This document shows positions 298-11,947 of a DNA stretch of 12,078 bases, one piece after another; within the stretch, counting starts at the first letter, position 1; each line of letters opens with the position of its first letter. This DNA is from a virus. The stretch is taken from the UHGV virus genome UHGV-0261881. One strand, given 5' to 3'. Made by a program: the position numbers and the translations under genes. The notes under the pieces are model-generated. The model saw only the letters and a list, made by a program, of their open reading frames with translations, was not told the DNA's origin and searched no databases.

Positions 298-1941
298 ATG
301 AAGCTGCTAGTGACATACATCAGGTGGAGTACTAAAGAGCAAGACTCAGGAGACTCCTTAAGACGGCAAACAAACCTCATTGATGCTTTCTACTCTAAGC
401 ACAAAAATGATTATTACCTTCTTCCTGCTCACAGATACGTTGATAAGGGTAAATCTGGTTTTCACCAGCAACATAAGAATCAAGGTTCTGACTTCAGACG
501 TATGTTTGAAAATGTTATGTCTGGGGCTATTCCAGAAGGTTCCTTGATTGTTGTAGAGAACTTTGACCGCTTCAGTAGGGCTGATATCGACACAGCTATA
601 GATGATGTCAGGCAGATACTGAGGAAAGGAGTCTCTATACTGACTCTGGGAGATGGTGAACTCTACGACAAATCAGCATTAACAGACCCTGTGAAGTTGA
701 TTAAGCACATCATCATAGCTGAGCGAGCACATCAGGAATCTCTTGTTAAACAAAAGCGTATAGCTCAGGTCTGGAACCATAAAACACAGCTTGCAAGAGA
801 ACTTAAGAAGCCTATGGGTAAGCAAGCCCCCGGATGGTTAGAGCTATCAGATGATGGTTCACACTACATCGTTGATGAAGATAAAGCGTCACTGGTGAAT
901 ATCATCTATGACAAGCGTCTTTCTGGTATGTCGATGTTTGCTATCTGCAAATGGCTAAACGAACAAGGTTACCCGACCATTAATCAGCGTAAGGTCAGAA
1001 TATCCAAGACTAAGAAACCTGATGGTAACTGGTCAGCATTAAGCGTTAAACACATCCTGACTTCACGAAGTGTATTAGGTTACCTTCCCGCTAAGATTTC
1101 TACAGAAGACCGTAAAACAGTGTTACGTGAAGAAATTGAAGGGTTCTATCCTCAGATTGTCACAGACTCTAAGTTTTACGCTGTACAGCAACTGTTAGAG
1201 GAAACAGGGAAGGGGAAAACATCCAGCGGTGAACACTGGCTATATGTGAACATACTGAAGGGGCTTATCCGTTGTAAGTGTGGGCTTGTAATGACTCCTA
1301 CAGGGATACGTAAACCCGTTTATCAAGGTACTTACCGTTGCAATGGTAATAAGGAGTCCCGTTGTAGCTACGGTACAGTGTCCAGAAAGTTACTTGATAC
1401 ACAGCTTTGTAGTCGTCTGTTTAGCAAACTGTCACAGCTACACGATGAAGCTACCGATACAGCTAAATTAGATGAACTGCAACGCAGACTAAACACCGTT
1501 GATAGTGAACTGGAAAAACTCACTGAGACGCTGATACAGCTTCCTAACATCACTCAGATTCAAGAAGCACTACGGGTTAAACAGGAAGAAAAAGATGAAC
1601 TGATAGTTCAGTTATCACGAGAAAAGGCGAGGGTAAAATCTGTATCAAGCTTGGATTTAAGCGGTCTTGATATGGAGTCTGTAGAGGGGAGAACTGAAGC
1701 CCAGATTATTATTAAGCGTTTGGTGAAAGAGATTGTTGTTTCTGGTAATGAAAAGCTGGTGGATATATATCTTCACAATGGAAATATGATTCGTGGTTTT
1801 CCTCTTGATGGTAAAGATGACCACACCTTAACGCTTGAAGAAGCAACCGATGAGATGCAGTCATTAGATGATATGCTTATTTTTGGTGAACCAGTAACAA
1901 GGATTTATCCTGCTGGTGATATGGAAGAGGTGGACGCTTAG
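298..1941 (+). CDS. Large serine recombinase (integrase), 547 aa
   Basis: N-terminal catalytic motifs YIRWSTKEQ (catalytic Ser), [15 protein letters not shown] and ERAHQESL. Cys-rich stretch IRCKCG...[14 protein letters not shown] consistent with a recombinase zinc ribbon. Coiled-coil-like C-terminal region ([21 protein letters not shown]). ATG start at 298. Position next to the att junction. Confidence 0.88.
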
Positions 1942-1960: not shown

Positions 1961-2734
1961 TCAATAAGTGCCCTTCTTATTCGGATTCACACTAAATTTC
2001 CGTAAAGCATTACCCGACTTAAGCACTTTTGAAGCCTGCTCATTAGCTGAGGCTGTGAAGGTGCTTACACCATCTTTCACCGTGACATTTTTAGAGCAAT
2101 TGCTACGGACCCTTAGCGCTTCATCAGATAGCTCAGATGCTGAGTAGCTATACAGTTCCTGACACATCAACATAGGTGCGTTATTGCGTTCAGTAGTCAC
2201 GTTACCCGCATTCTTCTTAGAAGTTGCGCCACCATCATTTGTGGTAGCGGCCTTTCCAGTTGCAGCAGAGATATCAGTCTGACCAACAACAGCTTTAAAG
2301 TTAATTTCCTGAAAAGTTAGCTGGATTCTTAGACCATTTGAAATACCAACATCTTTAGATGCTTTAAAGCTTGTAATAATGGAATCATCAATTTTAATTC
2401 CGTCCTTACAGATAACAGAAATAATTTGCTTCTGGTCACGCCAGCTTTCAAGAGTGTCAATGAAGTTTTCTACTAATTGACCCTGACGAGTTAATAATAA
2501 GCTTCCTTCATAGCCAACTACAACGACACCACTAATAGTGATTGTTCTGGGTGCTCTTTGCACATTATCTGTGACGGTTTGCCCTGATTGCATGTTCTGT
2601 GTAGTCACCTGCATAGGGCTATCAAATTCCATGTTTTCAGTTGCTGATAAGGTTAAGAAGGCATCTACATTGTCTCTTAAGTGGAAATAGATGCCATCTT
2701 TGCCACTGTAACGAATCTGATTAGAGTAAATCAT
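1961..2734 (-). CDS. Hypothetical protein, 257 aa; weak resemblance to a phage distal-tail/structural protein given its position after the tape-measure-like gene
   Basis: Long ORF. The track's TTG start at 2755 is replaced here by the ATG at 2734-2732, which has a strong SD (aaggag, 7 nt upstream on the minus strand). Beta-rich-looking sequence ([15 protein letters not shown]). No catalytic motif recognised. Confidence 0.6.
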
Positions 2735-2813
2735 TAAATTCTCCTTTGATTTCAAAGGCTTAGTGTATTTTAATCATTTTTAACCAAGCCTTTGATATAT
2801 AAGTATTTTCTCT

Positions 2814-2968: not shown

Positions 2969-5044
2969 TTATTCCTCTGGGTAAGCTGAGCTAATCAAGG
3001 TATCTTCCTGCATACGATTAATATGCGATGTGGTTCTTTCATCAATAACCTTTCCATCAAGTACCGTCTGAGTTGTGATATTGATTGTCTGAGGCTGAAT
3101 GTTTACTGACGGCTTGATAACCTTTAAATCTTGTGTGAATGTTTCCACTCGACCTTTCAGATTATTTAATGCTTCAGGTGAAAACTGTGGAACATCTTTT
3201 GATTTGCCCTGAACCATAGCCCATAAAACAGCGGCTAAAGAGTTCATGTCACCAGACAATGCTTGGTCTGTAGGTTCCACCTTTGACCTTACAACTTTGT
3301 CAATTGGATTATCTGACTTACTCATCTGACGTTCATAGAACGGTTTAACAATGGAGTTAATCACATCAGTTGCCATACCGACAATCATTACTTTGGTAAT
3401 TGCATCAGCTACAGATAATTTTCCTTTACCACCTTCAACACTACCGGAACGTGAATTAATTCTTCCTGCTGCTGTATTTGCTACATTTCCAAGCGTGGAA
3501 ATAGCCCTAATTAAGCTCCAGATGCCACCTACAGCACCAATACCAGACCTTACAGCAACAATACCAGCAAGTCCCTTTAATGCACTTAACAGGCCATTTG
3601 CGATACCATCAGCTACAGCTTTTTGAGTGTCATTTAATTCTCTGTAAGCAAGGGTCACTCTGTCAAAGAATCCCTGCACTCGGTAGCTAATCGTGGTTAA
3701 ATCATCAATACCGTTTGACATACTTTTCATCAAGTCGCCAAAATGTTCACCAAGATTTTTAGATTGCCCACCTAGCGAATTAAGTAAATTAGTCAGTGAC
3801 CTTGTAAAGTCTGTTAAACCTTCCTGTGAACCGTCGAACATTAAGGCCAGATTATTATTCCATGAATTAGAAAGGCGGCCTAACTGCGTCTGAGTAGAGT
3901 TAATAATCTTTTCCCATCCACCAGCTTTATCAATCATCCTTCCCATTTCAGCGGATACTTTAGGAAGAACATCTTTAGAAAGAACTTTACCGTCTTTCAT
4001 AGCCTTGTCTAATTCTTCTGTAGTCATCCCAAGGCTTCTGGCAAATAACTGGAAAGCACCTGCCATTCTGTCACCTAATTGACCACGTAGCTCTTCAGCC
4101 TGAATCTTCCCTTTAGAAGCCATCTGCTCGAAAGCTTTCAGAATCCCGTTAATTTCATCAGTACTTAAACCCATTAATCTGGATGTGCCAATCACATTAC
4201 TAAATAAGGATTCTTTCTGGCCTGCATCCATATCACCAGCACCAGCGGAAAACTTAGCAAAACTGCTTAATGTTTCAATCTGGTCAACACCAGTATTATT
4301 AGCAAGATTCTTAACAAATTCTGTAGCTCGTTTAGCACCTTCATCACCTAAAACGAATTGTGCCGCTCGTTGTGATGCTTCTTTTTTCAGACCAACCTCC
4401 ATAATCTTCCTGTAAGCTTCTAAGGCTGTCTGAAAACTATAAATGGCTGTACCTGCTTTGATTGCACTTGTAGCTAATACATCCAGACCATTCGAAGCAT
4501 TTTCACTGTGATTATTTTTGCTGGTGGTCTTGTTAAACTTAGAAAGTGTTTCACGAAGAGACTGATTTAATTTTGCTAACTCACGATTAAAAGCTTCGTT
4601 TCCAAGTGTCTTGGATTTACTACTTAATGCGTAAAACTGACTCTTAATGTATTTCTCGACAATTGGGTTAAGACCTTTCAGCTTGCTCATATTCGCTGAA
4701 TAAGCTGCTGTGATTGCTCTGTTTCCGCTAATTCGTGGTTGCCTTGATTGTTTTGGAGGATTAACAGTGTCATTAAATCTGGTGGCAAACTGAAATGCTT
4801 TTGTGCTTCTTGCTCTCTGTTCAATCTTGTCAAAGGTCTTATTAAACTTCCTTTCAAGCTGCCCTAAAGAACTTGTCAGATTGCTGTCAAGTTGCTTGGT
4901 ATCGACCTTAAACGCTCTATTCAAATTGCGTTCAATTCTTTGTGCTGACTGCAAAGCTGCCTTTTCAACTCTTTGCAAGCCCTTAATAACGTTTTCACTG
5001 AAACTAAGTTCAACGATAAAACTATCAACTGTGAATTTGCTCAT
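2969..5044 (-). CDS. Tape-measure-like protein (phage tail length tape measure domain), 691 aa
   Basis: Central block GLSTDEINGILKAFEQMASKGKIQAEELRGQLGDRMAGAFQLFARSLGMTTEELDKAMKDGKV resembles the tape-measure core domain. Gly/Ala-rich hydrophobic segment (GLLSALKGLAGIVAVRSGIGAVGGIWSLIRAISTLG) and coiled-coil-like N-terminus are typical of tape measure proteins. ATG start with SD agaggtg. Confidence 0.65.
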   Translation of the reverse strand: MSKFTVDSFIVELSFSENVIKGLQRVEKAALQSAQRIERNLNRAFKVDTKQLDSNLTSSLGQLERKFNKTFDKIEQRARSTKAFQFATRFNDTVNPPKQSRQPRISGNRAITAAYSANMSKLKGLNPIVEKYIKSQFYALSSKSKTLGNEAFNRELAKLNQSLRETLSKFNKTTSKNNHSENASNGLDVLATSAIKAGTAIYSFQTALEAYRKIMEVGLKKEASQRAAQFVLGDEGAKRATEFVKNLANNTGVDQIETLSSFAKFSAGAGDMDAGQKESLFSNVIGTSRLMGLSTDEINGILKAFEQMASKGKIQAEELRGQLGDRMAGAFQLFARSLGMTTEELDKAMKDGKVLSKDVLPKVSAEMGRMIDKAGGWEKIINSTQTQLGRLSNSWNNNLALMFDGSQEGLTDFTRSLTNLLNSLGGQSKNLGEHFGDLMKSMSNGIDDLTTISYRVQGFFDRVTLAYRELNDTQKAVADGIANGLLSALKGLAGIVAVRSGIGAVGGIWSLIRAISTLGNVANTAAGRINSRSGSVEGGKGKLSVADAITKVMIVGMATDVINSIVKPFYERQMSKSDNPIDKVVRSKVEPTDQALSGDMNSLAAVLWAMVQGKSKDVPQFSPEALNNLKGRVETFTQDLKVIKPSVNIQPQTINITTQTVLDGKVIDERTTSHINRMQEDTLISSAYPEE

Positions 5045-5057
5045 TCATGTTTCACCT

Positions 5058-5140
5058 CTTTAAGCGTGAGCTACGTAAATTCTATTTTTCAGTGTGGATA
5101 TTAGCTTTACAGATTTCATGTAGCACACATAGGATTCGAT
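5058..5140 (-). promoter_or_regulatory. Promoter-like cassette, copy B, immediately upstream of the tape-measure-like gene
   Basis: Same core as copy A. -10-like TAGAAT on the minus strand (plus 5079-5084) sits about 35 nt upstream of the ATG at 5044. Lies between an intrinsic terminator (5160-5201) and the gene start. Confidence 0.5.
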
Positions 5141-5159: not shown

Positions 5160-5201
5160 AAAAAAGGGAGAAACTACCGATATCACTCGATAATCTCTCC
5201 C
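5160..5201 (-). terminator. Rho-independent terminator after the 67-aa gene
   Basis: Minus strand reads GGGAGAgattatcgagtgatatcggtagttTCTCCC followed by TTTTTT: 6-bp GC-rich stem plus U-tract, about 25 nt downstream of the stop at 5227. Confidence 0.6.
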
Positions 5202-5226
5202 GTTGATTTTCACCCAACCAATCTTT

Positions 5227-6487: not shown

Positions 6488-6556
6488 CCTCTTCTAAGAT
6501 AATTTACGTTTCAGTTTTTAAAAAGCACACCTGACAACCTACGAACTTAGAAGAGG
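6488..6556 (-). promoter_or_regulatory. 5'-UTR hairpin sequestering the SD of the 234-aa gene
   Basis: Perfect 11-bp inverted repeat CCTCTTCTAAG (6488-6498) / CTTAGAAGAGG (6546-6556) with a 47-nt loop. On the minus-strand mRNA the 3' arm contains the SD, 10 nt before the ATG. Confidence 0.5.
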
Positions 6557-6594
6557 CTTAAAAGGCGTTTGCCAAGTATGCTTTTTAAAAGCTG

Positions 6595-6631
6595 AAAAAA
6601 GCCCTAGATAACTAAAACGCTATAAAGGGCT
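6595..6631 (-). terminator. Rho-independent terminator ending the upstream minus-strand operon
   Basis: Minus strand reads AGCCCTttatagcgttttagttatctAGGGCT followed by TTTTT(T). Confidence 0.5.
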
Positions 6632-7279: not shown

Positions 7280-7304
7280 TTCTTAAAATCTCCTTTTTAC
7301 CAGA

Positions 7305-7430
7305 CCTCCTCAATCGCTCTGTAACGAGCTAAACAGTCTTTTTCAGGGGTAGCCTGTACAGTGGTATTACCCACCCTAAAATAAGGTAGTTTTTTGCGTT
7401 AGAATGCGATTGAGAGCGTCTGAGAAGCTG
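7305..7430 (+). repeat. Structured inverted-terminus repeat (SIR), copy 1, between the HNH-like gene and the 109-aa gene
   Basis: Aligns base-for-base in the same order with copy 2 (same orientation) and with the reverse complement of copy 3. Shared blocks GCTCTGTAACGAG, CAGGGGTAG, TACCCACCCTAAAATAA, GTTAGAATGCG and AGAGCGTCTGAGAAGCT. Termini are mutually complementary (CTCAATCGC / GCGATTGAG). Confidence 0.75.
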
Positions 7431-7435
7431 TTTTT

Positions 7436-7723
7436 CTAATTTCTCTTAAAGTCTCGGACTTGCATAAGATTTTTTGGTCTGGTATCGGCTCTGTTACCAT
7501 TTCGATGGATAATTTGCTTGTTGGATTGATAGCCATGATAAAGGAACCAGACAACATATTTCACGTAGAAAGTATATCGGCCTATATTAAATGTTTTGTT
7601 GCCGTAGTCGTCGGTATTTATCGTGACTGACTCTCCATCAGACCAGCACAGGGAATCACTGGATTCATCATAGATAAGGTGTTCTGTAAAATATCGTCTA
7701 ACATCTTCATGCCAAGGTTTCAT
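7436..7723 (-). CDS. Small HNH-family endonuclease-like protein, 95 aa
   Basis: C-terminal YVKYVVWFLYHGYQSNKQIIHRNGNRADTRPKNLMQV resembles the HNH motif of phage-type HNH nucleases (consensus-like ...W..hnG...IDHINGN..DNR..NLR). ATG start overlaps the upstream gene by 4 nt. Confidence 0.55.
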   Translation of the reverse strand: MKPWHEDVRRYFTEHLIYDESSDSLCWSDGESVTINTDDYGNKTFNIGRYTFYVKYVVWFLYHGYQSNKQIIHRNGNRADTRPKNLMQVRDFKRN

Positions 7724-8213: not shown

Positions 8214-8768
8214 TTAAAATTCCTCTGTAACTAAATACGGGTCAAACTCGAAATCTGGTTCACTAATCGTAAGGCTGATATTGCCCACTTCCGCATGATG
8301 ATTAATTGTCTCAATAACTTTCATGCAAATAGTGGCTAAGTTAGCGCAATATTTATCGCTTGGTAATTCATAGCTAAGTCTGGTTGCTTGTCTTTGAAGA
8401 TGGCTCGTCACTGTGCTTGAGCTAATCTTATCAAGGCTTCGAAGCAAATAGAAAATCTTCCGGTGATAGTTATCCCTTCCAAAGCTGCGACAAGTGCCGA
8501 TAATTACATCTTCAATTCGTGATGGTAGTTGCTCGTAAGAATCAAAGCCCATCAAGAAAGTTTTTAAAGTATTTTCTTTTTCTTTGCGTGTTGGCATATA
8601 TCTGTCTCGTGGCGTAATGCTACGAATGACCGCTTCAATGTTCTTACGTTCGGATTTGCTAAAGGTTGGGACTTCGTAGCTGGTGGGGGTGTCTGTGTAG
8701 CTGTAACCGTTGCTTCTGTTTCTTGCTTTGCTCTCTTCAAGAAACTTTTGAAAATCTTTGTCGTTCAT
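8214..8768 (-). CDS. Hypothetical protein, 184 aa, first gene of the operon
   Basis: ATG start 43 nt downstream of a consensus-like promoter. No motif recognised. Confidence 0.6.
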   Translation of the reverse strand: MNDKDFQKFLEESKARNRSNGYSYTDTPTSYEVPTFSKSERKNIEAVIRSITPRDRYMPTRKEKENTLKTFLMGFDSYEQLPSRIEDVIIGTCRSFGRDNYHRKIFYLLRSLDKISSSTVTSHLQRQATRLSYELPSDKYCANLATICMKVIETINHHAEVGNISLTISEPDFEFDPYLVTEEF

Positions 8769-8817
8769 TCATAAGCTGGCCCTTATAATTGTTAATTTCC
8801 TGTTAACTATATATACA

Positions 8818-8846
8818 ATCTTAGCAGTTTCAAAGGCTAATGTCAA
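8818..8846 (-). promoter_or_regulatory. Sigma70-type promoter of the minus-strand four-gene operon
   Basis: Minus strand reads TTGACA (plus 8846-8841), a 17-nt spacer, then TAAGAT (plus 8823-8818). Confidence 0.6.
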
Positions 8847-8854
8847 GCATTTTT

Positions 8855-8884
8855 TTAACATTTGATTAACATTTATGGTATAAT
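8855..8884 (+). promoter_or_regulatory. Extended -10 promoter firing rightward into the ORF-poor region
   Basis: TTAACA (8855-8860), 18-nt spacer, TGgTATAAT (8876-8884). Divergent from the operon promoter. Confidence 0.55.
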
Positions 8885-8917
8885 GGTTTTATGAGAGAGG
8901 GAAAATATAAAGGCGTG

Positions 8918-8975
8918 GCTATGAGGTTTATTCGATAAACCGAATCAACTATGAGAATGGTCACATGGTTATTGC
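8918..8975 (+). repeat. Direct repeat Rep2, copy A (contains cgaatcaactatgag)
   Basis: Homologous to 10493-10592 in the same orientation (ctatgagRtt ... cgaatcaactatgag ... aatggttatt). Confidence 0.6.
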
Positions 8976-8986
8976 ATTGCACACAG

Positions 8987-9082
8987 GCCTCTTCAATCGC
9001 TCTGTAACGAGTTAAATGGCCTCTTCAGGTCAACTCATAAGGTCAGGTACTTTTTGTATCAGAATGCGATTGAGAGCGTCTT
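8987..9082 (+). repeat. Structured repeat (SIR), copy 2 (shorter), forming the leader of a small ORF
   Basis: Shares the 5' block cttcaatcGCTCTGTAACGAG and 3' block AGAATGCGATTGAGAGCGTCT with copy 1. The central part differs. Terminal 8-bp complementarity TCAATCGC / GCGATTGA. Confidence 0.7.
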
Positions 9083-9095
9083 ACAAGGAAAACTA

Positions 9096-9272
9096 ATGGT
9101 AAACCTCCCTCCTGAGCTGGGGTCACCTGATGTTTGGGCTGGTGGAGGTGTGGGTCTGATTGCAGGCCTGCTACTTCGCTACGTCCTCGTCAGAGTGCTT
9201 GTTGTCTTTAAACTGTTCGGTCGTACATGGACGCTTGACCTTAAGGATAATGACCACACAGACCCCCGTTAA
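9096..9272 (+). CDS. Putative small membrane protein, 58 aa
   Basis: ATG at 9096 with SD aagga 7 nt upstream. Translation MVNLPPELGSPDVWAGGGVGLIAGLLLRYVLVRVLVVFKLFGRTWTLDLKDNDHTDPR has one hydrophobic helix and a charged tail. Weak hairpin (CCCCT/AGGGG, 9286-9309) downstream. Confidence 0.35.
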   Translation: MVNLPPELGSPDVWAGGGVGLIAGLLLRYVLVRVLVVFKLFGRTWTLDLKDNDHTDPR

Positions 9273-9391
9273 ACCCCCTTCAAAACCCCTATACCATCTC
9301 GTACAGGGGTATCTTTAGCATTTTGTGCTATCTATTAAAAAATAGCTTGACAGAACCGGAAAGCTGTATTTATCAAGTATTCACCTCTCTG

Positions 9392-9564
9392 ACAGTGATT
9401 TCTAAAAATACTTATTTTTCAATGAGTTGTAATCACCCATATATAGAGAACTGACAAGTCTCTTCACAGAGAACTCTGTAACCTTAACAGTAATTTCTAA
9501 AAATACTTATTTTTCAATGAGTTGTAATCACCCAATATATAAGGCTGTCCAGTACCTTCACAGA
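9392..9564 (+). repeat. Tandem direct repeat, two units of ~80 bp with a 95-bp period
   Basis: Units 9392-9470 and 9487-9564 share a ~55-bp near-identical core (acagtRatttctaaaaatacttatttttcaatgagttgtaatcacccatatata) and a downstream cttcacaga. A GCTCTGTAAC-like motif lies between the units (9474-9482). Confidence 0.7.
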
Positions 9565-10375
9565 TGACTTCAAGCCTTCTTAGCTATCCACTAAGCGGGA
9601 GAAGAGCGATAACCCCAGAGAGGGAAGCTCCCTTCTAATTGGTATTGTTATGAGGATGCTTCATCCGAATCATCTACCAATCCCTAAACCGACTCTCTTA
9701 ACCAGCCCTTTACGTTATTCGTTCACAGTGTTGATAAGTGGTTTTGCCCTCTGTTTCTGTTATCATCGGGCTTACCTTATCAGGGCTTTGAAATGCCCTG
9801 TAACTCCCCTCTTAACGGGAGAGAAAGAACATAGTGACCCCAAGCGAAGCGCCCCTCTAAAAAGATTTTTTAGCTACTTTGTTTAAAAGCACATCAAACG
9901 ATACATTTTATTGATTTAGGTCAAAGACAAAAGCATTGACAAAATGGTAAGATTGTTCACATGACCTTACTTAACAGATTCTTAAGAGCTTTGAAACGGC
10001 CTATTTAACAAGGTCACTACCTACGGTTCTTCGTTTTCCTTCTTTCTAGGTAGTCATCTGTTAAGAGTTTTTCAGTCTTACTCTTAAGAATCACTGTTAA
10101 GATGATACTCTCCCCTTCGGGTTATATCGTATCTCTTCTCCCGTTAAACACCCCTTCCTAACTATCTACATAATCACTTCTAAGAATCTTACAAGGTAAT
10201 ATCCAGACCTCTTATAGTTGACCTGATACAGAAGTTTTACAGGCATACTCTCTAGGTTACTAATCGGGTGCTATCAAGGGCCACTAAACGAGAGAGGGGA
10301 TATGTGACCATAGGGGAACCCCTCCTGTTAAAAAGGCCACTTAGAAGTCTGAGACTTTAGTAAAATCTGTGAATA

Positions 10376-10492
10376 TAGCTTCTCAGGCGCTCTGTAACGC
10401 ATTCTAAGCGATTTTACCCCTTTATTTTAAGGTGGGTGGTACATCCCTATAGACTACCCCTAAAAATGGGGTTAAAACTCGCTACAGAGCTT
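10376..10492 (-). repeat. Structured repeat (SIR), copy 3, inverted relative to copies 1 and 2
   Basis: The reverse complement of 10371-10500 aligns along its length with copy 1 (blocks GCTCTGTAGCGAG, AGGGGTAG, TACCACCCACCTTAAAATAA, GCTTAGAATGCG, AGAGCGCCTGAGAAGCT). Termini are complementary (GCTCTGTAGCG / CGTTACAGAGC). Confidence 0.7.
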
Positions 10493-10592
10493 TCTATGAG
10501 ATTAGCTTCATGAAGTAATTCATTACTGAATCACCTAATCGAATCAACTATGAGGCTTGGTAAGATTGTGCAAAATCTGTACAATGGTTATT
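10493..10592 (+). repeat. Direct repeat Rep2, copy B
   Basis: See Rep2 copy A. Here it abuts SIR copy 3. Confidence 0.55.
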
Positions 10593-10850
10593 TGGCTTCT
10601 GAAAATTTTTACAAAAATCATAGTAGCCCTCTTTGAATCTCATCTTCCCCGAATCTTCAAAAATATCTGACAGATGTCTGTAGCTGCTAAGTACCCGTCA
10701 CACCAGCTATGTGACCCCCTTTGCAAAAAAGCCAAATATCTATTGACTTTCTATGTGAATTGCTATAAAGGCATCTATCTAGACCTTTAACTGTATAAAT
10801 ACACATGACAACAAACGCCCGTTAAGTGTCTATATAAAAAGGTAGCTGTA

Positions 10851-10895
10851 GCTATAGACAACAATTGTGATAATTGATTTAATGGCTATAGACAA
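10851..10895 (+). promoter_or_regulatory. Two direct GCTATAGACAA repeats upstream of the small recombinase gene (candidate operator or binding sites)
   Basis: Identical 11-mers at 10851-10861 and 10885-10895 (34-bp spacing). Related TATATAG-like motifs at 10828-10836 and 10914-10922. Confidence 0.4.
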
Positions 10896-10935
10896 GCAAG
10901 ACAGACCTTTGTTGACTATATAGAGAGATAAGAAC

Positions 10936-11505
10936 ATGCGTACATTCCTTTATGCTCGTGTATCAGTTGATGACCTCACCACACAAAACCAAGTAGAAGC
11001 TGTTAAACGTGCTGGTTATGAAGTCAAACCTTCACGAGTGATTGAGGAAGTTATTAGTGGTGCTACACCAGCTATGGACAGACCACAATTTGTAAAGCTG
11101 GTGGATAAGCTGGAAGAAGGTGATTGTCTTGTAGTGACCAAGATTGACCGCTTAGGAAGGGATAACATTGATGTACAGAAGACCGTCACAATGTTACTGG
11201 ATATGGGTGTGAAGCTAATTTGTTTAGACCTGCCTGTAAAAGACCTTTCAAGTGCTGAAGGTAAACTTATCCTTCAACTATTCAGTACCTTTGCAGAGTT
11301 TGAACTTAACCGCATCAGAGAGCGAACCAGAGAGGGCTTAGAACGAGCTAAAGCACAAGGTAAGGTGTTGGGTCGTCCTGTAGCTAAAAACACTACAGAG
11401 GCCGTTTTAGAGCATAAGGCAAAGGGATTGTCACAAAGTCAGGTTGCAAAGCTTCTGAATCTCTCTGTGAGAACGGTTAGCCGTCACTGGACAAAGACAC
11501 TGTAA
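10936..11505 (+). CDS. Small serine recombinase (resolvase/invertase family), 189 aa
   Basis: Motifs YARVS (catalytic Ser), VVTKIDRLGRD and ERTREGLERAKAQGKVLGRP, plus a C-terminal helix-turn-helix (GLSQSQVAKLLNLSVRTVSRH). ATG start. Confidence 0.88.
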   Translation: MRTFLYARVSVDDLTTQNQVEAVKRAGYEVKPSRVIEEVISGATPAMDRPQFVKLVDKLEEGDCLVVTKIDRLGRDNIDVQKTVTMLLDMGVKLICLDLPVKDLSSAEGKLILQLFSTFAEFELNRIRERTREGLERAKAQGKVLGRPVAKNTTEAVLEHKAKGLSQSQVAKLLNLSVRTVSRHWTKTL

Positions 11506-11526
11506 GAAACTTAGTAGCATCTTCAT

Positions 11527-11550
11527 AGCCTCCTTCATGGGGGCTTTTTT
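11527..11550 (+). terminator. Rho-independent terminator after the small recombinase gene
   Basis: AGCCTCC-ttcat-GGGGGCT stem (one G-U pair) followed by TTTTTT, about 22 nt after the stop. Confidence 0.6.
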
Positions 11551-11558
11551 GTATCCAC

Positions 11559-11626
11559 TCTCTAAGCGTGTCCTACGCAAAATCTCCTGAACACTTACCC
11601 ACCCTCAGAAATAACTTTCACGTAAG
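11559..11626. repeat. Diverged third copy of the promoter-like cassette (copy C), containing a TTACCCACCCT block shared with the SIR repeats
   Basis: ctctaagcgtgtcctacgcaaaatctc resembles the cassette A/B core. The loop contains ttacccaccctcagaaataa, similar to TACCCACCCTAAAATAA in SIR copy 1. 3' arm ctttcacgtaag. Confidence 0.45.
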
Positions 11627-11937
11627 AAACTGTTAAGCAGCTTGATAGTTATTCTGTGTGACCAAACATCTATATATCGTTATATAGTCCTGTATATAGC
11701 ACTTTTCTAGGAGTCGAGAGAGGGACGACTAACACGATACAGTTTACCCTGAAAAGAGACTTCACAGATTCTCTATATATTTCAATAAGTTAGGCTAAAA
11801 AGAGACTATACCGATACTGCATAGAATCTGTGTAAAACTGCTTAGATACTTGGGAAAATGCCTTTAAATTGAATAGGGATTCACCTGATATTGTCCTGTT
11901 ATTAACAGGTAGTTGAATGTACGTGTTTAGCTATGTA

Positions 11938-11947
11938 AAAGCACCAG
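11938..11947. other. attR junction (element side | host wrbA side)
   Basis: Sequence ctatgtaaAAAGCAC|cagaactttagccat: the right part is the reverse complement of the native wrbA start ATGGCTAAAGTTCTGGTGC. Confidence 0.7.

Follow-up and report, generated by a model that had tools for sequence, protein, structure and literature searches.

A candidate structured RNA and helper-shared DNA motifs in the non-coding region of a satellite-like integrative island of Escherichia coli

Why should a mobile island of about 11.7 kb leave some 2.1 kb of its length almost free of genes? We addressed this question for the UHGV virus genome UHGV-0261881, a stretch of 12,078 bp (hereafter the window) that contains one complete integrative island, and in particular for positions 8855–10935, which lie between an operon promoter and the gene of a small recombinase. 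A preliminary description of this region had noted a single plausible open reading frame (ORF) of 58 aa and had suggested, as possible contents, one or more regulatory RNAs, a replication origin with iterons, or the recombination substrate of the small recombinase. With middling confidence, as for a claim that could go either way, we read the region as the non-coding control region of a mobile island with a satellite-like layout, built as a mosaic of separate units. The comparison of related islands supports an evolutionarily maintained folded RNA on the plus strand, which is not in Rfam; it may function as a regulatory RNA, possibly beside cis-acting DNA that would depend on a helper phage, presumably of the genus Felixounavirus.

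Coding content and conservation of the region

The comparison is based on an alignment of 44 sequences, namely the window, 10 loci from genomes and 33 loci from metagenome or viral contigs. The features listed in the preliminary description were all found where it had placed them. The reported scarcity of ORFs was borne out: six-frame maps of the window and its 10 E. coli homologues share only the ORF ending at 9272, and PGAP annotates at most this 58-aa ORF at the homologous loci. Variation at its codon positions 1, 2 and 3 (6.07, 2.46 and 9.86) has a coding signature, which together with the conserved translation marks the ORF as a real gene, encoding a predicted membrane peptide. Everything else in the region is non-coding throughout the 43 related islands, no tRNA or tmRNA was found, and the flanking genes read normally in the standard genetic code.

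The core at 8769–10740 is present in nearly all aligned loci with 80–95% column identity. It is still 80–84% identical at the DNA level where the adjacent 184-aa protein is only 63–68% identical, which argues for constraint on the nucleotide sequence itself, and no part of the island is better conserved than its non-coding region. Outside the small ORF, the terminator-like hairpin that follows it, the two hairpins described below and the optional SIR blocks, no conserved folding was found in the window and its homologues, so the remaining conservation lies in the primary sequence. The folding z-scores of individual homologues flag only the small ORF, the terminator, hairpin 1 and, weakly, a site near 10560. 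A long-range stem of the window (10582–10598/10729–10745) is not conserved, and the stretch 10572–10750 has a mean z of −0.7. Sliding scans of the 44-sequence alignment with RNAalifold and the structure conservation index gave an index near 0 almost everywhere, even at hairpin 1, and were judged uninformative because the alignment mixes forms that cannot be aligned with one another.

A candidate structured RNA and its possible mode of action

The proposed RNA comprises the following features.

9924–9953, plus strand: promoter-like element AAGACA-18-TGgTAAGAT, 92–94% conserved, with a predicted start at about 9960
9970–10101, plus strand: hairpin 1, an interrupted stem-loop of about 135 nt, about 10 nt downstream of the predicted start
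10104–10133, plus strand: hairpin 2, directly 3' of hairpin 1, with the invariant tip cUUCGg
10134–10152, plus strand: CU-rich tail UCUUCUCCCGUUAAAC (10134–10149) with the near-invariant core CUCCCGUUAAA; this is the third copy of the purine-rich motif described below, read on the plus strand

The base stem of hairpin 1 (CUUAACAG/CUGUUAAG) is invariant, and the apical loop is CU-rich. In each of the 35 distinct homologues the fold is significantly more stable than those of shuffled controls (mean z −4.5), and the plus strand is the stabler one in 29 of these. The homologues fall into three forms, the inner stems of which are not mutually alignable and share the same rod-like fold; a covariance model built from one form (R1) recovers hairpin 1 in 43/43 loci with 68–173 bits. 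Standard pairs make up 97.9% of the paired alignment cells vs 91.1 ± 0.4% in shuffles, and double changes are found in 17 of 35 pairs (8.4 ± 1.8 in shuffles, with 0/500 shuffles reaching 17). When the partners are slid by 1–3 columns, pairing falls to 42–57%. Read on the minus strand, 87.1% of the cells are paired as opposed to 97.9% on the plus strand. There are 137 G.U cells and only 6 A.C cells, which argues that the fold has been selected on the plus strand and as a single strand.

Concerning hairpin 2, the covariance model R2 also finds it in 43/43 loci. Its lower stem GAUAC/GUAUC covaries to AGAACC/GGUUCU, GUAAC/GUUAC and AAUAC/GUAUU, and 90.2% of the cells are paired (75.3 ± 1.5% in shuffles, 25–49% in slid controls). 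Its support rests on the double-changed cells (41 vs 14.2 expected), double-changed pairs (4/9) being no more frequent than in shuffles (3.9). The UUCG tetraloop at its tip is specially stable in RNA. The minimum free energy fold of 9960–10152 (−48.9 kcal/mol, z −4.40) leaves the tail unpaired. The generic signs of structured RNA, that is, compensatory changes beyond shuffled and slid controls and strand-specific wobble pairs, are thereby found over 9970–10133, and the idea of a regulatory RNA gains support, as far as sequence goes, from two plus-strand hairpins with compensatory substitutions. A cmscan of the whole window against Rfam 15 (E ≤ 1) returned nothing in the region, C4/CI antisense RNA, 6S, GOLLD/ROOL and riboswitches included. 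The sole hit, the plant microRNA family MIR9563 at 6499–6612 (35.5 bits vs a gathering score of 90), was read as a chance match to a long hairpin; this has 29-nt arms (86% complementary) and is intergenic between the 234-aa and 109-aa genes.

The elements thought to control transcription of the region are listed here.

8818–8846, minus strand: leftward operon promoter TTGACA-17-TGcTAAGAT (10/12 consensus matches with TG; block 92–96% conserved)
8815–8826: TGcTAAGATTGT, within the leftward operon promoter
8855–8884, plus strand: rightward promoter with an extended −10, TTAACA-18-TGgTATAAT, conserved
9096–9272, plus strand: gene of the 58-aa single-pass membrane peptide (ATG at 9096), an ORF in all homologues
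9286–9309, plus strand: GC-rich 9-bp hairpin followed by the U-rich tail UAUCUUUAGCAUUUU, a likely intrinsic terminator of the small-ORF transcript
9349–9380, plus strand: near-invariant block TTGACAGAACCGGAAAGCTGTATyTATCAAG, 94% conserved and kept in divergent L025-type variants; promoter-like or a putative protein-binding site
10537–10569, plus strand: paralogue of 8938–8955 (an 18-nt pair from the repeat search), then the third TGgTAAGATTGT element

The strong extended −10 promoter of the preliminary description is borne out at 8855–8884 by 11/12 consensus matches with TG, and it stands back to back with the operon promoter. The further statement that it drives the region finds no support for the whole 2.1 kb, given the terminator-like hairpin at 9286–9309 and the promoter-like elements downstream. 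The stem of that hairpin is kept in 23/23 distinct rows (pair 9291/9304 is G.U in 19, G-C in 2 and A.C in 2), the homologues have low folding z-scores around 9270–9340, and a U-run follows the hairpin on the other strand too. With this conserved hairpin and its U-rich tail just behind the small ORF, the strong promoter probably serves no gene other than that of the peptide.

The 12-mer TGNTAAGATTGT has three copies in the window vs 0.02 expected: one is the extended −10 of the leftward operon promoter and the others, at 9945 and 10558 on the plus strand, coincide with the two extra copies of the operon extended −10 element TGnTAAGATTGT. Since TGNTAAGATTGT recurs as the operon −10 and is not the helper promoter type, we infer two further host-type promoters inside the region, at 9945 (the element upstream of hairpin 1) and 10558. 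As a helper promoter type TGnTAAGATTGT was rejected: the phage has three copies of TAAGATTGT, none of them after TGn or a −35 hexamer. Downstream of the 10558 element the stretch 10572–10750 has no conserved fold.

Around these units lie repeats, motif modules and inserts.

8984–9090, plus strand: SIR copy 2, an optional insert of about 105 bp in the small-ORF leader, of one family with 7301–7427 and found in about 52% of homologues
9392–9581, plus strand: two tandem units of 95 bp (9392–9439 vs 9487–9534, 98% identical; 9441–9475 vs 9535–9569, 71%)
9591–9640, plus strand: module c1, purine box TAAGCGGGAGAAGAG and a small hairpin AGAGGGA..UCCCUUCU
9781–9800, plus strand: small hairpin CAGGGC-UUUGAAAU-GCCCUG, present in the window
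9811–9862, plus strand: module c2, TTAACGGGAGAGAAAG ... GCGAAGCGC, in some islands the insertion site of a Dam methyltransferase gene
10283–10335, plus strand: module c4, CTAAACGAGAGAGGGG ... GGGGAACCCCTCCTGTTAAAAAG, an imperfect hairpin
10374–10495, either strand: SIR copy 3, a structured block that part of the family lacks (z −5.5 on the plus and −3.5 on the minus strand)

A repeat search recovered the previously noted 95-bp-period tandem repeat and SIR copies 2 and 3; the pair formerly called Rep2 A/B is probably the 18-nt pair 8938–8955/10537–10554. Each unit of about 95 bp holds CTkACAG-TrATTTCTAAAAATAC and CTTCACAG, and the second unit is absent in about 25–30% of homologues. The SIR copies lie at 7301–7342, 8984–9025 and 10374–10415, together with 7391–7427 and 9051–9087. 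SIR is carried by 214 of 5426 E. coli genomes, with a median of one site in each, so it belongs to this island family only. Full-length SIR copy 3 sequences fold well on both strands, slightly better on the minus strand. The three-copy motif was found again as CGGGAGARRAG at 9596 (plus), 9816 (plus) and 10133–10143 (minus), vs 0.40 ± 0.63 copies expected (2/200 shuffles reach three), and a diverged fourth copy is present at 10287 (plus). The c1 box is partly deleted in about eight homologues. As to the hairpin at 9781–9800, its presence in the window was correctly described; its 6-bp stem is found in only part of the homologues, other forms having stems of 3–4 bp. The N6-adenine DNA methyltransferase gene at c2 lies on the minus strand in L006 (CP027140, 2173–2841) and also occurs in H33, H34, H57 and H59–H61. 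A box ATCAACGGGAG(G/A) followed by a short hairpin is also seen on the minus strand in two early intergenic gaps of phage NBEco004 (L012, at about 2052 and 4886) and at 5204 (minus) in the island operon. The island box stands upstream of an in-frame GTG at 5186; it is like a ribosome-binding site (RBS), with a very short reading frame or none.

The proposed mechanism is as follows. Back-to-back sigma-70 promoters would stand at the left side of the region, and the first rightward unit would consist of the membrane-peptide gene and its terminator. The second would start at about 9960 from the 9945 promoter and produce an RNA of about 190 nt or more, with the 135-nt hairpin, the UUCG-tipped hairpin and a CU-rich single strand; the paralogous purine-box modules, and inserts found in some islands and missing from others, would make up further parts of the mosaic. 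The RNA would act as an antisense-type regulator, its CU-rich loop and tail pairing with GGGAG-type purine boxes and with the leaders of island transcripts, in the manner of the P4 CI RNA or the PLE IIR RNA. The three hairpin forms may be specificity types, and the remaining conserved DNA, including the CTTMACAG boxes described below, may serve helper-dependent replication or packaging. CU-rich single strands are found in the apical loop, the loop of hairpin 2 and the tail. In a duplex scan, the best partners of the tail and the hairpin-1 loop were c4 (10275–10316, the top predicted partner of both), c1 (9579–9608), the 5' end of the rightward transcript (8892–8921) and the leader at 5191–5220 (minus), with −23 to −28 kcal/mol; all are low-complexity sequences.

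Several points weigh against this proposal. The complementary stretches are purine and pyrimidine runs of low complexity. At c2 pairing is not co-conserved, the box being variable and the tail invariant (a long-range c2/tail helix was rejected on this ground), and the tail has no antisense target with up to three mismatches in the Felixounavirus phage NBEco004. The double changes of hairpin 1 mostly go back to two or three block replacements that many sequences share by descent, and the alignments had been fitted to the covariance models. No clear terminator follows the tail beyond 10152, and the promoters and RNA ends are placed by consensus only. Most of the 2.1 kb is without a conserved fold, RNA structure explaining only about 10% of it, and the satellite behaviour (induction, packaging) is putative. 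The region offers a concrete target, namely a candidate RNA of about 190 nt with two covariation-supported helices and natural allelic forms; together with the motif shared with the helper, it could be used to address roles in immunity, helper sensing, replication or packaging.

Links to the presumed helper phage and rival explanations

At the DNA level, the region is tied to the presumed helper by one insert and one octamer.

9636–9686, plus strand: 51-bp insert that matches part of the 628-bp direct terminal repeat of NBEco004 at 100% identity

Of the 11 sequences in the E. coli set, the window among them, 4 have the insert; in the 44-sequence alignment it is present in about 7%. The octamer CTTMACAG has 12 copies in the window vs 1.03 ± 1.02 expected, 9 of them intergenic; six lie within 9462–10101, including both arms of the hairpin 1 base stem, and the boxes form islands of conservation. 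As −35 hexamers of promoters they were rejected, since no consistent −10 lies downstream. In NBEco004, CTTAACA/CTAACAAG is enriched 40–110 fold in the gene-free terminal 2.2 kb or so, in and beside the terminal repeat and often with 11-bp phasing. Model R1 has a weak match to an inverted CTTAACA arrangement at the right end of this repeat (26 bits, E about 0.02). Beyond the insert, no longer stretch of homology to the end of the phage genome was found, the best extra alignment scoring 34 vs a null maximum of 33. The record of this phage (MN994498.1; L012/L013) is labelled circular yet starts and ends with the same 628 bp (1–628 and 84889–85516), so it represents the linear genome with both direct terminal repeats; around its ends about 2.2 kb has no annotated gene.

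A rival view is that the region works mainly as DNA. It would be a helper-dependent origin and/or packaging signal imitating the gene-free terminus of Felixounavirus; helper replication or terminase proteins would bind the CTTMACAG boxes and the palindrome at 9970–10101, and helper proteins would bind CTTAACAG. We regard this as a live rival, if an unlikely account of the region as a whole; a DNA-level helper-dependent role is compatible with the RNA and the two can coexist. The excess of CTTMACAG and its conserved boxes, the motif arrays that fill the helper terminus, the 51-bp piece of the terminal repeat and the weak R1 match all favour it, as do the position of the PLE origin in the equivalent non-coding region and the conservation of primary sequence without a fold over most of the region. 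However, the motif density is far below that of the phage and phased arrays are lacking, the insert is confined to a minority of islands, alignment to the phage terminus beyond it is at noise level, and no initiator gene was recognised; in addition, the strand asymmetry (G.U 137, A.C 6) and the UUCG tip would be unexpected for double-stranded DNA sites. An origin of the iteron type, as earlier suggested, found no support: the window has no array of regularly spaced 17–22-bp repeats, only the two-copy 95-bp tandem (a duplication that about one homologue in four lacks) and some two-copy repeats scattered elsewhere, DnaA boxes (TTWTNCACA) are at chance level (2 in the window vs 1.69 expected), and no Rep, primase or helicase family was detected in the island proteins with Pfam, PHROGs, NCBIfam and PADLOC. 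The unknown island proteins are possible initiators, and a helper-dependent origin without iterons is likewise possible. Quite improbable, in our judgement, is that the long hairpin acts as folded single-stranded DNA, as an attC-like site, a single-strand origin or a primosome site. Its 135 nt of imperfect stem keep the fold while the sequence varies, the strand asymmetry would also fit one DNA strand, and its ends ACTTAAC...GTTAAGA resemble what we take to be the integron attC boxes RYYYAAC/GTTRRRY. Against this, no integron integrase, relaxase or rolling-circle Rep was found in the window, the hairpin is a single copy without a cassette array, the adjoining covarying hairpin has a UUCG tetraloop, and a promoter-like element lies directly upstream.

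A similarly small probability is given to the view that the region consists of old genes in decay, or of neutral filler whose apparent conservation reflects only the youth of the family. It would account for the RBS-like purine boxes before very short or broken reading frames and for the abundant internal duplications, insertions and deletions, but in divergent islands the region has changed less than the protein-coding gene beside it, two helices show compensatory evolution, and short motifs are invariant within variable surroundings. Least probable of all is that the small serine recombinase encoded alongside uses most of the region as its substrate for recombination or inversion; the relevant features are these.

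10741–10935, plus strand: upstream part of a variable small-recombinase module, absent, replaced or inverted in many islands (L007–L011 and many metagenome loci)
10827–10834, 10853–10860 and 10887–10894: res-like half-sites TGTCTATA/TATAGACA, putative recombinase sites
10913–10920: TGACTATA, in the res-like half-site region

The recombinase gene abuts the region, and inverted half-sites by the gene, as expected of a res or inversion site, are found at 10827–10930 only, within the module-specific last 110 bp or so. The substrate suggested earlier may thus be retained for at most this end and not for 8855–10740, the core at 8769–10740 being equally conserved in islands that lack the small recombinase or have a different one on the other strand. 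Moreover, no long inverted repeats bracket the region, and no inverted or deleted forms occur across 43 colinear loci. The small serine recombinase is exchangeable cargo: some islands (L007, L009) have a different recombinase of about 182 aa on the opposite strand and others have none. Positions 10741–11620 gave no match in phage records.

The island and its comparison with known systems

Our reading of the region as a control region with a folded RNA belongs to a wider picture of the island, the layout of which is as follows.

298–1941, plus strand: large serine recombinase, 547 aa, at the left end by the left attachment (att) site
1961–2755, minus strand: Dit-like/baseplate protein gene, in the minus-strand cluster
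2969–5044, minus strand: tape-measure protein (TMP) gene, in the same cluster
7436–7723, minus strand: HNH endonuclease, 95 aa, in the same cluster
8214–8768, minus strand: unknown protein, 184 aa, in the same cluster
10936–11505, plus strand: resolvase/invertase-type recombinase, 189 aa, beyond the ORF-poor stretch

The cluster also contains several small unknown ORFs. The att core GTGCTTT is present at 216–222 and 11938–11944, and in E. coli O111:H21 the island sits between tonB and yciI. The metagenome contig L030 (ERZ506742 NODE-633, 11,233 bp) joins window position ~216 to ~11947 across GTGCTTT (L030:3020–3075). This attP-type junction joins both ends directly, so the island of about 11.7 kb exists as an excised circle or as a tandem copy (tandem dimer). 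Several more metagenome contigs of 10.6–12.1 kb are about as long as the island. The TMP and Dit-like genes are 86–95% identical in DNA to those of Felixounavirus. These tail genes, the attP junction and the layout support a putative satellite context.

To our knowledge, only a few systems, chiefly PLE/ICP1 and PICMI in vibrios, offer examples of satellites of phages that are strictly virulent. The closest known layout is that of PLE in Vibrio cholerae, which has an integrase by the left att site and a minus-strand cluster flanking a non-coding region of about 2.7–3 kb that contains repeats of four types; the origin lies in the right quarter of this region, and non-coding RNAs are abundant (PMC7145576, PMC7567579); its IIR RNA has antisense homology to ORF leaders (PMC7567579). 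Our island matches this plan: a large serine integrase occupies one end, and there are a minus-strand cluster and 2–3 kb of non-coding DNA. PLE-like excision is indicated by the L030 junction. PLE measures 18 kb and the island 11.7 kb; PLE has RepA_N and semi-palindromic iterons, neither of which was found in the island, whereas the island has near-copies of the helper tape-measure and Dit-like genes and another host and helper. The PLE helper is a virulent myovirus, as the presumed helper of the island would be; a helper tie of the island is suggested by the tail genes and the 51-bp terminal-repeat fragment. PICMI are presented as minimalist satellites of virulent vibriophages with reduced gene content and without capsid-remodelling genes (PMC10803314). 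They resemble the island in being small, with few genes and an apparent dependence on a virulent helper. PICMI have a tyrosine integrase, AlpA and a primase; the island, by contrast, has serine recombinases, tail genes and a large non-coding region.

Concerning the RNA, the P4 CI RNA and the P1/P7 c4 RNA are antisense immunity RNAs (Rfam C4 family). Like the elements that encode them, the island lacks a recognisable protein repressor and has a small candidate structured RNA behind a promoter; complementary boxes recur within the presumed transcribed stretch, and there are allelic forms by which specificity might be set. It differs in its fold (a 135-nt rod plus a short hairpin, without an Rfam match at E ≤ 1) and in its complementary boxes, which are low-complexity and not co-conserved at c2. 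Hairpin 1 also recalls integron attC sites in being an imperfect hairpin of comparable length that keeps fold over sequence, with AAC...GTT ends and strand specificity. By eye its boxes match at 7/7 and 6/7 positions (3' box GTTRRRY); however, the window has no IntI or tyrosine integrase, the hairpin is a single copy, and unlike attC it adjoins a UUCG-tipped hairpin and a promoter-like element.

What would be new here is a satellite-type control region with an RNA family absent from Rfam; the PLE-like layout is already known. The full-text literature searched, which leaves out most subscription journals, contained no description of a satellite of Felix-O1-type phages. We tentatively suggest, as a conjecture that is more probably wrong than right in its full extent, that the islands of E. 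coli and its relatives are a PLE-like family of satellites not described before, with virulent Felix-O1-type phages as helpers. The new structured RNA would govern their decision circuit; its invariant base stem carries the octamer of the helper terminal-repeat arrays, and the three interchangeable inner-stem forms would be specificity types, for immunity or for helper-matching. If true, an E. coli counterpart acting against Felixounavirus, a genus much used in phage therapy and biocontrol, would matter, and the island would be a tractable model for satellites of virulent phages.

The non-coding region was matched in 569 of 5426 complete E. coli genomes, only 26 of which contain at least 80% of it in one place. 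Carriers of the island include E. coli A0 34/86 (CP120567) and O111:H21 15A (CP077477). The plasmid collection gave no match, the phage collection matched only the 51-bp piece, and a scan of one genome per species returned a single short E. albertii contig. Homologues of the 184-aa protein form 1072 clusters (at 90% identity); the best 120 of these are all without a name, and the named sources are Escherichia, Shigella, Salmonella and Citrobacter. For the small island proteins, Pfam, PHROGs, NCBIfam, PADLOC and PDB sequences gave nothing usable, and an AlphaFold model of the 184-aa protein was set aside (pLDDT 53).

Some further observations concern the remaining parts of the island. Between the small recombinase and attR, another 430 bp or so (11506–11937) is free of genes, and its part 11612–11909 is conserved at 80–95% across islands. 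It has two CTTMACAG boxes (11637, minus; 11760, plus) and a 46-bp-spaced repeat (11744/11790), and in islands where the small recombinase is missing, this stretch brings the non-coding region to about 2.7 kb. Within the Dit-like gene, positions 2201–2710 are up to 95% identical to Felixounavirus, and GU169904, a record named Staphylococcus phage SA1, matches this gene at 93.9%. The island TMP has 691 aa and the TMP gene of NBEco004 has 2229 bp. About 20 records of Stx1a-converting phages match some part of the window with high identity. A 66-nt repeat (85% identical) is found at 2815–2880 and 5060–5125, upstream of the Dit-like and TMP genes, and each copy holds the inverted pair GCTACGTGAAT/ATTTACGTAGC; a motif like that pair, TTTACGTAAC, is repeated just inside the left end of phage NBEco004.

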